Shown in pieces: positions 6,001 to 45,000 of a stretch of 45,479 nt of DNA. The position numbers were made by a program. Source of the stretch: Octopus sinensis (taxonomy: Eukaryota); the NCBI RefSeq assembly GCF_006345805.1, contig NW_021834794.1:1-45479 (forward strand), written 5' to 3'. The stretch's first letter is position 1. Every line of letters starts with the position of its first letter.

Positions 6001-9000
6001 AAGTGACACTGGGGTAAAATGTACGAATCCCAATATACCCATCATGACTACCCGTCTGATAAGGATACACCAGGCACATGCATCACAACCATATGTGCGC
6101 GGCATGGTGATCTCATATCAAGATAAACAGTGCATGACCTTGCAGGTGGGGCCCTGTTAGAATTTTCTTCTGGTCGAGGAGCCCATCCCGCTCAAAAGGT
6201 CCCTGAATAAGGGTTGTTTGAGGATGTTCAACGAAACACCCATGTTTCCAGAGGTGAATTATTCAAACCCCAAAGAATCCCACATGGCTATGATGCTCCC
6301 CCACAACTTCTGCTCATGATCAGAGATGCACACATCGTCAGCCACTAAGGGACAAACTCAACTGGTTAAGGTCAAACAACTGACAAGCAAATCTGTGGTA
6401 TTGAGCAGAATATTTGCTGTAGCCCATCTTTTATACCAAGACAAAACAATGTACATGATAACACTTCCAATCAGTTAAGATCAGAAGCCGCGAGAGCCAC
6501 TGCATGGTACTGTTGTTGTTATAATAATAATAATAATAATAATAATAATAATAATAATAACCTGAACCTGGAACCATGTGGTTGGTAAGCAAGCTACTTA
6601 CCACACAGCCACTCCTGTTGATTTTTAAATATTTCGTTAGTCTTGTTTATATGCAACAACCCTCACAACAACAACAACACACCCACCCACACGCATTCTT
6701 TCTTTTCTCCTCTTCTGCCCAGAATGCTTTTCTTATATGTAAAGCCTCGGGCTTAACAAAGAAATCTTCTTTCTTTCATTGTGTGCTTCTTTCGAAAGCA
6801 ACGGAAACCTTTTTCGCCTTTGCGGACGGAACAGCTTTCCAGTCTGCTTTTGCGTTGAATTAAGAAATTATTATTGTCGTCGTCATCATCATCATCATCA
6901 TCATCATCATCATCATCATCATCATCATCATCATCATTGTCGTCGTCGTCGTCGTCATCATCATCATCATCATCATCAACAACAACAGCGACAACAGCAG
7001 CAACGACGGTAACGACAGCAACAATACCAACAGTTGCAGCAACAACAACAATAATAATTATGATAATAACCGTGAAAAAAGCCGACATTGCTGTCGCCGG
7101 GAAAGTTGTGAAGCGTGATGACACGTCATTGTCAGGCATCGAGGTCGTTGTCGTTGTTGTTGTTCCCGTTGTTGTCGCTGTGCATTATGTTAACCCTTTA
7201 CGCAACAAAGAGTATAAAGAAAGATCGAACGAAAGAAAAATTGTAAAGAATTCCAAATCGCAAGGTGTGATTCTGCTGCGTCACACACACACACACACAC
7301 ACACACACACACACACACACACACACACACACACACACACACACACACACACACACACACACACACTCCACGATACACTTGCTCATAACACAAAAATGTG
7401 TTATTGGTTCATCTATATTGTATACACAGAGCTTTCTTTGACAAGAATGTCTTTGTATATATGCATGTATGTATGTATGTATGTATGTATGTATGTATGT
7501 ATGTATGTGTGTATGCTTGTATGTATGTATATGTGTATGCTTATATGTATGTATGTATGTATGTATGTATGTATGTATGTATGTATATATGCATGTATGT
7601 ATATATGTATGTATGTATGCATGCATGTATGTATGTATGTATGCATGCATGTATGTATGTATGTATGTATGTGTGTATGCTTCCATGTATGTATGTGTGT
7701 ATGCTTATATGTATTATGTATGTGTGTATGCTTGTATGTATGTATGTATGTATGTATGTATGTATGTATGTATGTATGTATGTATGTATGTATGTATGTG
7801 TGTGTGTATGTATGTATGTATGTATGTATGTATGTATGTATATGTATGTATGTATGTATGTATGTGTGTATGCTTGTATGTATGTATATGTGTATGCTTA
7901 TATGTATGTATGTATGTATGTATGTATGTATGTATGTATGTATGTATGTATGTATGTATGTGTGTATGCTTGTATGTATGTATATGTGTATGCTTATATG
8001 TATGTATGTATGTATGTATGTATGTATGTATGTATGTATGTATGTATGTATATATGCATGTATGTATATATGTATGTATGTATGCATGCATGTATGTATG
8101 TATGTATGCATGCATGTATGTATGTATGTATGTATGTGTGTATGCTTCCATGTATGTATGTGTGTATGCTTATATGTATTATGTATGTGTGTATGCTTGT
8201 ATGTATGTATGTATGTATGTATGTATGTATGTATGTATGTATGTATGTATGTGTGTGTGTATGTATGTATGTATGTATGTATGTATGTATGTATGTATGT
8301 GTGTGTGTATGCTTGTATGTATGTATGTATGTGTGTATGCTTGTATGTATGTATGTATATATGTATGTATGTTTGTATGTATATATGTATGCATGCATGT
8401 ATGTATGTATGTATGTATGTATGTATGTATGTATGTATGCATGCATGCATGTATGTATGTATGTATGTATGTATATATGTATGTATGTATTTATGCATGT
8501 ATGTATGTATGTATGTAAATGTATGTATGAGTATGTATGTATATATATACATACCATACATACATACATACATACATACATAGATATATATATATATATA
8601 ATATAATATATATATATATATATATATATATATAAAAAAACATATATAGACATATATATGTGTGTATATATATATATGCATACATAGTCATACACTCTTT
8701 CACACATTCACATATGTGTTATTATATTTGTTATATAAGGAAAGTTATAAAAACCCCAAAACAGAGCGACGCCATTGTATCTACTTACATTATTTTTTGC
8801 AGCGTCTGTGTGCCTGTGTTGTCGGGGACTACTGCGGGTAGGCTGGGTAGTCTCTGATACGTGGACCAGTGTTATAACCATTGCCGTAAAATACATCGTC
8901 ATCATTTATGCCTGAAAGAAAAAAAAAACACATGAAGAATATGGCAATAATAATAATAATAATAATAATAATAATAATAATAACACTGATGGCTTCTGAT

Positions 9001-42000: not shown

Positions 42001-45000
42001 AGAGGGAAGGAGAGAGAGGGAAAGAGTGATATTGAAAATGAGAGATAGATGGATACATATATACATACACACTCAAACACATATATACGTACATATACAT
42101 ACATTCATAATATATGTACGTATATGTATACACACTCACATAACATAAATACGATATCCATGTATATATATATATACACACATACATAAATATATATCTC
42201 TCTCTCCCTTTTTATCTCCCCTTCCTACTTTTTCTTCTCATTCCTCTGCTCTTCCATTTGATCCCCCCTCTCTCTCTATTTACTTTTATATCCGTCTCAA
42301 GCTCCTCTCTCTCTCTCTCTCTCTCTCTCTCGTCATCTCTCTACTCCTCCATCTGTTTTAATTTCCCACCTTATGTCTGCCTGCCTGCCTGCCTGTCTCT
42401 CTCTTTCTTTCTCTCTCTTTTTCTCTCTTCACCTTTCTACTCCTCCATCCATTTTCATTCCCACCCTCTGTCTATATCTTTCTATCTCTCTCTCTATTTC
42501 TCTCTCGCTCGCTCTCTTCATCTTTCTACTCCTCCATCCGTTTTCATCCCATTTTCTGTCTTTCTTTCTCTCTCTCTCTCTCTCTCTCTCTCTTTCTCTC
42601 TGTCTCTCTCTCTCTCTCGCTCTCTTCATCTTTCTACTCCTCCATCCGTTTTCATCCCACCCTCTGTCTTTCTTTCTCCCTCTCTCTCTTCTTCTCTCTC
42701 CCTCTCTCTCTACTTACCTGTATTAGTCTCTCCACATCCATATTTTCCAGAGCCTTTGTTATGAAATGAGAACACACCGACAATCAAGGCTTGACCACCC
42801 GACTGGATGGTCGACTCAGTATGCCCTTCATCGCAGGTGTTCTCCCTCAGTGCACAGAACAGCAGACTTGGATAAAGGACCAGCACCAAGAGGACGATGA
42901 AAGAAGGTCTGAAGTAATTGTCTGGAAAAAAAAAAACGAAAGAGAAAAGAAAATGGCGATATTACTGACCGCTCCAACTGTTGCTTGATGAGGGTTGGTT
43001 GACTGTTCATTCTGACATTAAACTGGGCAGGGGTCGGCGAACCGGGGATGTCTTAACTTTAAAACAAAATTAAGTTTAACTACTTTGACTAGGATTCGAA
43101 CCTGATGCCAAAAGACGTCTAAAATTATTTTGAAACAAAATTAAGTTGCACTGCCATGAACAGGATTCGAACTTGAAGTCGTAGGACATCTAGAATTATA
43201 AGTTAATTCTAGATGTCCTACTGCCTTGAGGAAGGATTCTGCAGTGTTGGCAAAGACTATCTGAAAACAAAATGAAGCTAGATTGTCGTGACCAGGATTC
43301 GAACCTGGGTTACCACGGCCACAACGTGGGGTCCTAACCACTAGACGATCACGGCCATCCATCTAACTGTTGTGAGGATGTCAGATTAGTTAAGTTCAAT
43401 TGCCTCTGGTCTGTCAGAGAAATGCTGTGTTCAAACGGATTTGTTTAGACCAGGAGTCGACGAAGCTGAGTAAATGACCCCAAGTGGAGGGTAAAAAGGA
43501 AATTATTGTGGGTAATGAGGACTCGCTAGACACTAGAAACGGCTGTTTCCGTGACAGCTCGACAATTCACTTCGAATATCTTCGTGACCTCCGTGACTGC
43601 TGCTGTGATCTCTGTGTGTGTGTGTGTGTGTGCGTGCTTGTTCTTGTCCGTGTGCGTGTGCTTCTTCTGTCACGAAGATATCCGAAGTGAATTGCCGAGT
43701 TGTCACGGAAAAAAACACACACACACACACACATCTTACTCTTTTACTTGTTTCAGTCATTTGACTGTGGCCATGCTGGAGCACCGCCTTTCGTCGAGCA
43801 AATCGACCCCCAGGACTTATTCTTTGCAAGCCTAGTACTTATTCTATCTTTCTGTTTTGCTGAACCGCTTAGTTACGGTGACGTAAACACACCAACATCG
43901 GTTGTCAAGCGATGGTGTGGGGACAAACACAGACACACAAACAAAAACACACTCATATATGCATATATACATATATACATATATATATATATATACACAC
44001 ATACACACACACACACACACACACACACACACACACACATATATATATATATATATATATATATATAAAGTTAATCCAAACAAGAAAACAAAAAGACAAC
44101 AACGCGAGGATGTGGAACAAATAAAGTATTATTGGACGCTCAGGAAAGAAGGAAGAAGGAGGGTTTGACGTTCGAGCGGTGCTCTTCGTCGGAAACAAAG
44201 GAGAAGGAAAGATCCCGAGACGGGAGGACAGAGGAAAAAAAATCGCCGGTGGTATTCACTAGGTCACATACTAAATATATATATATATATATATAATATA
44301 TATAATATATATATATATTATTTATATATATTATATATATGTATATTATATATATATATATATATATATATATATATATATATATATATATATATATATA
44401 TATATATATATATATATATATACGACGGGCTTCTTTCATTTCCGTCTAACAAAACCACTCAGAAGGCTTTGGTCGCCCCGAGGCTATAGTATAGAAGACA
44501 CTTGCCCAAGATGCTACGCAGTGGGACTGAACCCTGAACCATGTGGTTGGTAAGCAAGCTACTTACCACACAGTCACTACTGCACCTCTGTCTTTTAACT
44601 TATATTTCTTTCAGTCATTAGACTGTGGCCATGCTGGAGCACTACACCTTGGAGTATAATTTGTCAAATGAATCGATCCCAGTACTTCCTTTTTTTCGCC
44701 GAACTGCTAAGTTATGGGGACGTAAACGCACCAACACCGGGACGTAGACACACCAACGCCGGTTGTAAAGCGGTGGTGGGAAGCAAACACAGACACAAAG
44801 AGACTCACAAGCTTACTTCTCAATCACATAATTTCGGGTTAAGTCTCACTGCGTGGCACCTTGGGCAAGTGTCTTCTACTATAGGCTCGGGTCAACCAAA
44901 ACCTTGTGAGTGGATTTGGTAGACGGAAACTGAAAGAAGCCTGTCGTGTGTGTGTGTGTGTGTGTGTTATTGAACACGCATACACAATAAACGTGTTTTG

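Follow-up and report, generated by a model that had tools for sequence, protein, structure and literature searches.

We describe here a gene in a 45,479-nt stretch of the genome of Octopus sinensis (this whole stretch is referred to below as the window) that combines a signal-type segment, five tandem Venus-flytrap domains (V1 to V5) and one seven-transmembrane domain (7TM), distributed over 21 exons (E1 to E21) of the minus strand. That this is one gene, with five flytraps and a single 7TM, we regard as almost certain. On balance we also take the locus to be real and intact, a single gene from an octopus that is closely allied to O. vulgaris, and its product to be a G-protein-coupled receptor (GPCR) of class C, with about 2,860 residues, that is related to the metabotropic glutamate receptors (mGluRs). 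To our knowledge, all class C receptors that have been studied (the mGluR, CaSR, taste and GABA-B receptors) carry one flytrap per chain.

Gene model and domain order

The window contains no N, is AT-rich and is packed with microsatellites, and every protein-like open frame between 8.8 and 43 kb lies on its minus strand. The exon borders were placed with tblastn guides (P0001 of O. bimaculoides, P0014 of O. vulgaris and P0015 of Argonauta) together with frame-keeping scans for AG and GT, and two borders were set by eye. The exons run from 42921 down to 8829, where the stop codon occupies 8829-8831. AG is present at all 21 acceptors and GT at all 20 donors, the phases chain over the 21 exons, and there is no stop within the exons or in the codons that are split between them; the summed coding length is 2,851 codons plus the stop. 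The initial annotation had claimed a phase-consistent frame of 21 exons, and the rebuilt model indeed has the same outer limits and the same exon numbering. Statements on the full length rest on phase arithmetic and on database orthologs, the queries derived from the window being single exons or stop-to-stop open reading frames (ORFs). Per exon, the identity amounts to 72-94% with O. bimaculoides and to 87-100% with an O. vulgaris protein, both ranges bearing out an origin from an octopus.

Pfam was run on 19 stop-to-stop ORFs, each taken alone. ANF_receptor was matched in 8 of the 19, and the positions of its profile are traversed five times in genomic order. Exons of the units that were missed by Pfam were found by tblastn with the V4 exon as query (22-36% identity, E 3e-3 to 1e-30), and the high-scoring segment pairs (HSPs) of this query likewise fall into five ordered cycles. 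The 7tm_3 profile was matched once, in E20, where it scored 105 bits (cut-off 33.5) and was covered from position 3 to 246 of 251. NCD3G gave no match at E<=0.01 in the 19 exon ORFs, and none at E<=0.001 in the orthologs P0014, P0015 and P0017. Exon by exon, Pfam and tblastn agree with what had been read from the sequence before, namely five tandem flytraps, one 7TM and no full NCD3G. Two other Pfam matches, to FN3_7 (17.4 bits, cut-off 34.3) and to Orf78 (16.6 bits, cut-off 29.4), were discarded as noise, and nine further ORFs of the window matched no Pfam family.

The exons E7, E10, E14 and E16 share one order of elements: the hairpin that ends a flytrap, a stub with three cysteines, 10-20 residues, and the first strand of the next flytrap. 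The first strand of V4 is split, with GDFTVV in E14 and its continuation G-LFDIH in E15. The start of E20 repeats the junction pattern once more (IGSW, CPVGSTCNC), after which the seven helices follow. The claim that the junctions between flytraps lie within single exons was thus seen to be right for E7, E10, E14 and E16. The associated claim that each flytrap opens with a G(D/Q) strand failed for the fifth strand, which begins with ND, the first strands at the junctions being found otherwise. In a hydropathy scan of E1-E20 (E21 lay outside the scan), seven segments were found in E20 and a single one each in E1 and E15, that of E15 being a buried helix of the flytrap. Thus, the gene has one signal-type segment and one 7TM. 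Of the single signal peptide that had been assigned to exon 1, the hydrophobic segment stands, and the start codon is lacking from that exon.

E1 is preceded by a good acceptor (a pyrimidine run followed by CAG), and its frame is entered in phase 1, with no Met. The orthologs have an ordinary signal peptide of ~20 residues followed by an (R/K)x(S/Q)TC motif, and E1 is the counterpart of this region, with a matching core and the motif LRENTCD. As E1 is devoid of an ATG, the start codon must be in a short upstream exon; the 5' end is either outside the window or unrecognised. A gene for tRNA-His (GTG) is located at 43284-43355 on the minus strand, ~360 bp upstream of E1 (Rfam 56.3 bits; ARAGORN). 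The start exon of the O. vulgaris protein P0014 (its first 19 residues, 43362-43306) overlaps this tRNA gene and was therefore rejected as spurious.

The public octopus gene models diverge from the rebuilt gene in other places as well. The O. bimaculoides model (LOC106868777) is without E1-E5 and E12 and reads a different frame at 23666-23499, in E13. The O. vulgaris model skips E6 and part of E5, and its record carries the name 'Metabotropic glutamate receptor 3', which is an automatic label. The units are complete in Argonauta and in every non-cephalopod ortholog, and the omissions were therefore put down to errors of the models. The initial annotation had expected that automated gene models might exist in databases, and several were found. 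Considering that the octopus models are truncated, frame-shifted, mislabelled as mGluR3 or started within a tRNA gene, surveys of receptor repertoires have likely missed or misfiled the family.

Table 1. Exons of the five-flytrap receptor gene in the window, in order of translation, with the part of the protein that each encodes
Exon	Position	Strand	Content	Source
E1	42718..42921	-	Signal-peptide hydrophobic core SFIVLLVLVLYPSLLFCAL, TCD motif, V1 first strand GQALIVGVFSFH; phase-1 entry, no ATG	
E2	41685..41798	-	First helix of V1	
E3	39977..40111	-	V1 lobe-1 loop, one Cys (ENCNL)	
E4	38399..38565	-	V1, ANF_receptor profile 51-104	Pfam
E5	37467..37813	-	V1 lobe 2, ANF_receptor profile 105-224, lobe-2 Cys	Pfam
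E6	34784..35342	-	C-terminal part of V1, ANF_receptor profile 277-352 (under the cut-off at 21.6 bits)	Pfam
E7	33075..33332	-	Junction; V1 hairpin VGSY, stub CPNATCQPC, V2 first strand GDVILTSFFSLH	
E8	31618..32043	-	V2, ANF_receptor profile 3-122	Pfam
E9	29395..30192	-	V2, ANF_receptor profile 124-352 (E 6.7e-26)	Pfam
E10	28049..28250	-	Junction; V2 hairpin VGDY, stub CKGKCISC, V3 first strand GDLLIAAMFDIH	
E11	26611..26827	-	N-terminal part of V3	
E12	24082..24649	-	V3, ANF_receptor profile 58-213 (E 1.5e-23)	Pfam
E13	23230..23664	-	C-terminal part of V3	
E14	21432..21600	-	Junction; V3 hairpin MAEY, stub CITSCSKC, V4 first-strand start GDFTVV	
E15	18841..20150	-	Entire V4 in one exon, 1,310 nt, 436 whole codons; ANF_receptor E 4.8e-39, profile 4-254	
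E16	17166..17591	-	Junction; V4 hairpin IGSY, stub CSAASCPKC, V5 first strand NDLNLVAIFDIH, V5 loop Cys (SIKCRKNG)	
E17	16340..16779	-	V5, ANF_receptor profile 53-189 (E 4.1e-26)	Pfam
E18	13778..14183	-	Middle part of V5	
E19	12667..12900	-	C-terminal part of V5	
E20	10349..11405	-	V5 hairpin IGSW, stub CPVGSTCNC, ~55-residue spacer, seven transmembrane helices (7tm_3, E 6.7e-30)	
E21	8829..8911	-	Short C-terminal tail, last 27 whole codons and stop 8829-8831	

The window further holds several repeats. An interspersed element of ~430 nt is present in introns and flanks (13170-13458, 20935-21361, 37022-37422 and 44759-44977), with reverse-oriented copies near 23757-24017, 32081-32482 and 43691-44068; most copies are 74-92% identical to one another and contain ORF-like frames with no Pfam match. 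Microsatellite arrays with periods of 8 and 12 nt occupy 7390-8700 (~100-1,400 bp beyond the stop codon) and 17650-18270 (intron 15), and the two arrays are related in inverted orientation over up to 480 nt, with 78-87% complementarity. In addition, intronic repeats of the trinucleotide type (21690-22374, 14150-14600, 37870-38100 and 41240-41545) give long poly-H, poly-N, poly-T and comparable frames, and such open frames could mislead ORF-based gene finders.

Orthologs and the origin of the array

A search with P0001 as the ortholog query returned 15 database proteins of 2,632-3,067 aa. These come from the genera Octopus, Argonauta, Haliotis, Patella, Batillaria, Babylonia, Sinanodonta, Pecten, Mytilus, Saccostrea, Mya and Solemya and from the nemertean Lineus, with two further records; the named species of the family include Argonauta hians, Haliotis asinina, Pecten maximus, Mytilus californianus and Lineus longissimus. 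A local phmmer search with E15 recovered five units in all 15, each of which also has the 7TM. The heuristic by which units were counted gives four for P0018, whose unit 1 falls into two stretches. Pfam found five ANF_receptor domains and one 7tm_3 in the three orthologs scanned (3/3). When E15 was compared with 1.84 billion representative sequences, 8 further proteins of 2,730-2,872 aa were obtained, each with five matched stretches, and a search with the 7TM exon that was restricted to longer proteins gave only one protein.

Two of the relatives bear on the question of whether the units are transcribed together. P0016 (2,851 aa) has a longest contig of 9,646 nt and P0023 (2,847 aa) a contig of 8,840 nt; the contigs exceed the reading frames by no more than some hundreds to roughly a thousand nt, and as they leave no room for introns, we infer that they represent spliced messages. 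Of the 21 exons of the window, 20 align collinearly with P0016, the 27-codon E21 being the one that is missing, and the residue numbers of P0016 abut at every junction. P0015 is collinear with the window over 21 of 21 HSPs. None of the DNA repeat families detected in the window covers the exons, which argues that the units are old copies and do not stem from a recent duplication or from assembly stutter.

The octopus gene is best placed, in our judgement rather probably, as an ortholog within an ancient family that comprises molluscs, a nemertean and a flatworm. The initial annotation had inferred, for a cephalopod, a multi-ligand or coincidence-detecting chemoreceptor or a long ectodomain for adhesion or spacing; these functional readings are not supported as stated. 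Nor is a restriction to cephalopods: the same architecture occurs in other molluscs and in a nemertean, and flatworm units fall inside V1-V4. The conservation of the family position by position is more in keeping with a core function that has been maintained than with a chemoreceptor confined to one lineage.

A tree of 77 units was built with FastTree from 13 orthologs cut into five, four units of the flatworm Macrostomum, a two-unit protein, and flytraps of mGluR, GPRC6A and V2R, with E15 as the sole unit from the window. Each of V1 to V5 forms one clade across species (support 100, 97, 99, 99 and 100, respectively), and the pattern recurs with another taxon set. Macrostomum units 1-4 are found within V1-V4, respectively, and E15 is inside the V4 clade (support 99), where it adjoins the V4 of Argonauta. 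Moreover, V2, V3 and V4 form a group (support 98). One clade per position, with the flatworm units inside, points to a single origin before molluscs, nemerteans and flatworms diverged.

The introns between E6 and E7, E9 and E10, E13 and E14, E15 and E16, and E19 and E20 are all in phase 0 and share one alignment column (628/629), directly 5' of the hairpin. This column is the only intron position that is common to all five units. The shared intron in front of the hairpin implies that the unit of duplication consisted of the flytrap, the hairpin and the start of the cysteine-rich domain, of which the first three cysteines are taken in. As judged from the aligned units, it is thereby shown that the array of five has a single origin in the duplication of such a unit, and that each position has been kept since. 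The mean pairwise identity between the orthologs is highest for the 7TM (0.45), followed by V4 (0.42) and by the other units (0.31-0.37), of which V2 is the least conserved (0.31). V4 is without an internal intron and the other four units have two to five, at positions that do not match, which raises the question of intron loss.

A full-text literature search, the coverage of which excludes most subscription journals and supplements, revealed no animal class C receptor with tandem flytraps. In the literature listings, as far as their text extends, tandem flytraps were encountered only for the bacterial kinases BvgS and EvgS and for trypanosome cyclases. The gene identifiers of six orthologs occurred in no paper of the full text searched. 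The family thus appears uncharacterised but already deposited, under the labels 'uncharacterized' or 'metabotropic glutamate receptor 3'.

Other database representatives also combine several ANF_receptor domains with one 7tm_3. P0068 has two units, P0040 and P0042 have four, P0053, P0060 and P0085 have 3-4, and P0115 and P0138 are also among these proteins of two, 3-4 or four tandem units. Their units lie mostly outside the V1-V5 clades, the exceptions being unit 1 of P0085, which is nested in the V1 clade, and the final units of P0053, P0060 and P0085, which are sister to V5. The existence of these separate proteins implies that the chained-flytrap design is wider than the five-flytrap family. 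Two records are of another kind: P0047 (3,927 aa), in which 10 ANF_receptor stretches surround a 7tm_3 and an NCD3G, looks like a fused model of tandem genes, and P0029 (a CaSR-like fish protein of 1,613 aa), with two flytrap stretches, may be a similar fusion.

Ligand pockets, proposed mechanism and alternatives

As stated in PMC6307864, Arg78 and Lys409 (numbering of human mGluR1) play a critical part in the binding of glutamate. At the position of Arg78 the window units V1-V5 have A, Y, N, L and H, and at that of Lys409 they have Y, R, Q, Y and F, so that an R is present only in V2. Across 13 species V1-V4 have neither R nor K at the Arg78 position, which in V4 is occupied by Leu in 13/13. 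As the contacts with the backbone of an alpha-amino acid we take Ser165, Thr188, Asp208 and Asp318 (mGluR numbering). In the window, V4 and V5 have the same equivalents (S, T, D, D), and V5 has in addition a Y at the position of Y236. V3 reads S, T, D, R, V1 reads D, S, E, D and V2 reads T, M, H, D, so that three contacts are kept in V3 and most are lost from V1 and V2. Over the 13 species, V4 has the most uniform pocket, with S/T at S165 in 13/13, T/S at T188 in 12/13 and D at D208 in 13/13, and V2 the least uniform one, its D208 equivalent being D in only 4/13. These pocket residues suggest that a site of the amino-acid type has been retained in this octopus by V3-V5 alone. Since the equivalents of Arg78 and Lys409 are missing from the pockets and the backbone contacts of V4 and V5 are kept, the ligand would be amino-acid-like and other than glutamate.

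The lobe-2 Cys is present in every unit of 13/13 orthologs and in all five window units. Three stub cysteines follow every unit in 16/16 orthologs, and in the window they are found in E7, E10, E14, E16 and E20. A loop Cys of V5, likewise present in 16/16 orthologs, aligns with the loop Cys of mGluRs, which makes the bond between protomers. The V1 loop Cys is found in 11/13 species, and the loop is absent from V2-V4 in 13/13. When the P0016 V5 unit (residues 2014-2511) was submitted as a pair to complex prediction, without controls, no answer was obtained (score 0.00), which counts neither for nor against dimerisation.

We propose that each three-cysteine stub would be stapled by a disulfide to the lobe-2 Cys of its own flytrap, as in the cysteine-rich domain of mGluRs. 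With stapled stubs the chain would form a semi-rigid stack and not beads on a string. Two such chains would associate as a parallel dimer, cross-linked at V5 via the invariant loop Cys. V5, which is adjacent to the membrane, and V4, partly with V3, would bind a non-glutamate, amino-acid-like ligand and drive the 7TM, and V1 and V2, with their degenerate pockets, would be modulatory, partner-binding or spacing modules. This division of labour among the units, drawn from pocket residues, is offered tentatively, the odds being somewhat against it.

In models of class C activation, one flytrap dimer pulls on the 7TM. Five distinct flytraps that have been kept in a fixed order since before molluscs, nemerteans and flatworms split mean that the module can be chained, and they raise the question how, or whether, the closure of a distal flytrap reaches the membrane. 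A more far-reaching proposal, which we regard as unlikely in its entirety, has the flytrap dimers stacked in five storeys; distal closure would be relayed to the 7TM via the stapled linkers, so that several ligands or contacts would be combined. The phase-0 borders would let the cell choose the number of storeys, and together with the families of two, three and four units the receptor would belong to an unrecognised tandem-flytrap branch of class C.

The ectodomain could instead be mainly a rigid spacer or adhesion arm, with a protein or matrix partner across the cleft and the 7TM reporting the contact, an option to which we likewise attach a low probability. It finds a likeness in the orphan class C receptors with non-flytrap ectodomains and agrees with the loss of most backbone-contact residues from V1 and V2 in the window, with V2 being the least conserved unit (0.31; D208 equivalent retained in 4/13) and with the distance from the membrane to which five stacked modules would presumably extend. 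The fact that each unit forms a conserved clade of its own also suggests that surfaces, and not pockets alone, are under constraint. However, V4 is the best-conserved flytrap, and with its regular S165, T188 and D208 positions and its invariant Leu it has the look of a conserved pocket for a small ligand, and V5 of the window keeps 5/5 of the backbone and ring positions that were checked. Another possibility is that the units are selected by splicing, in which case exon skipping in frame would yield isoforms that differ in the number of flytraps, from one to five, and in ligand range. As the five introns at the unit borders are all in phase 0 at the only shared position, whole units can be skipped in frame. 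Nevertheless, the transcript-sized contigs of two relatives hold all five units, the omissions in the two octopus models do not track the unit borders, and the fact that every unit is conserved in its own position over the whole family speaks for selection of the full-length form. We consider selection by splicing quite improbable.

Finally, neighbouring single-flytrap genes or pseudogene fragments could have been read as one gene, or the region could be misassembled. Gene predictors do sometimes fuse tandem class C genes, as P0047 exemplifies. In the present case, however, the 34 kb contain only a single exon with a 7TM and a single segment of the signal type, the junctions are inside single exons, the 2,851 codons contain zero stops, no DNA-level repeat family extends over the exons, and the same five-unit order is found in 15 long proteins from other species as well as in contigs free of introns. 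An artefact of this type is to be given hardly any credence.

Several points weigh against the reading of the locus as an intact receptor that works as proposed. Among the 57 candidate mini-exons with an ATG in 42922-45479 none has a convincing donor. Both NCBI octopus models leave out parts of the gene, which may reflect faulty modelling or real isoforms. In V5 the equivalent of S165 is S/T in only 8/13 species and that of D208 is D in 10/13, and the pocket pattern of the octopus may not hold for the family as a whole. The disulfide pairings and the dimerisation we infer from the alignment only. The absence of an NCD3G between V5 and the 7TM implies that the usual route of signal transmission is altered, and the TM7 motif of E20 (GPLYRL) is only a loose fit to the PKxY of mGluRs.

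Comparison with mGluRs and other known systems

Among the structures in the PDB, E15 was matched best by mGluR7 (E 2.7e-50), with other mGluRs next and CaSR far behind (1.6e-21). E20 gave the transmembrane domains of mGluR7 (E 4.4e-14) and, more weakly, of mGluR3 and mGluR2. An AlphaFold2 model, a check that had been suggested in the initial annotation, was made for E15 from an alignment with 14 homologous single-unit database proteins (pLDDT 89.6, pTM 0.91). It represents an mGluR-like flytrap, with TM-scores of 0.79-0.85 upon superposition on mGluR flytraps. In the 7TM, the cysteines C2625 and C2709 (numbering of P0016; top of TM3 and extracellular loop 2, respectively) are invariant in 16/16 orthologs and have their counterparts in VCSIRR and PRCAP of the window E20. 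Cysteines at these two positions form the disulfide that is found throughout class C. The Lys of TM3 (K2646) and the Glu of TM6 (E2749) are invariant in the orthologs as well, and presumably constitute the ionic lock. We predict with fair assurance that the receptor signals as a GPCR.

Some similarity exists to systems outside the mGluRs. The GABA-B receptors also have a flytrap joined to the 7TM without a cysteine-rich domain, with one flytrap per subunit in obligate heterodimers; they were absent among the 60 best of the 99 PDB matches of E15. The flytraps of BvgS and EvgS represent a different subtype of periplasmic-binding protein. These sensor kinases have two tandem Venus-flytraps per chain and are dimeric, as described in PMC4352136. 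They differ from the octopus receptor in being bacterial, in their histidine-kinase output and in having two units instead of five. A parallel is also formed by the class IV mGluRs (of the insect DmXR type), in which, according to PMC6307864, Arg78 and Lys409 are replaced, the backbone contacts are kept and glutamate is predicted not to bind. Compared by this description, the octopus receptor shares with class IV the replacement and, in V4 and V5, the retention; class IV has, however, one flytrap.

The closest solved relatives, for the flytrap and for the 7TM alike, are the mGluRs of groups II and III (mGluR7, 3, 2, 8 and 4). The octopus receptor has in common with mGluRs the disulfide of lobe 1 and the Cys of lobe 2, in V5 also the loop Cys, and the cysteines of TM3 and extracellular loop 2. 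It lacks the equivalents of Arg78 and Lys409 that mGluRs require for glutamate, and whereas an mGluR has one flytrap and an NCD3G of nine cysteines, the octopus receptor has five flytraps per chain and stubs of three cysteines.

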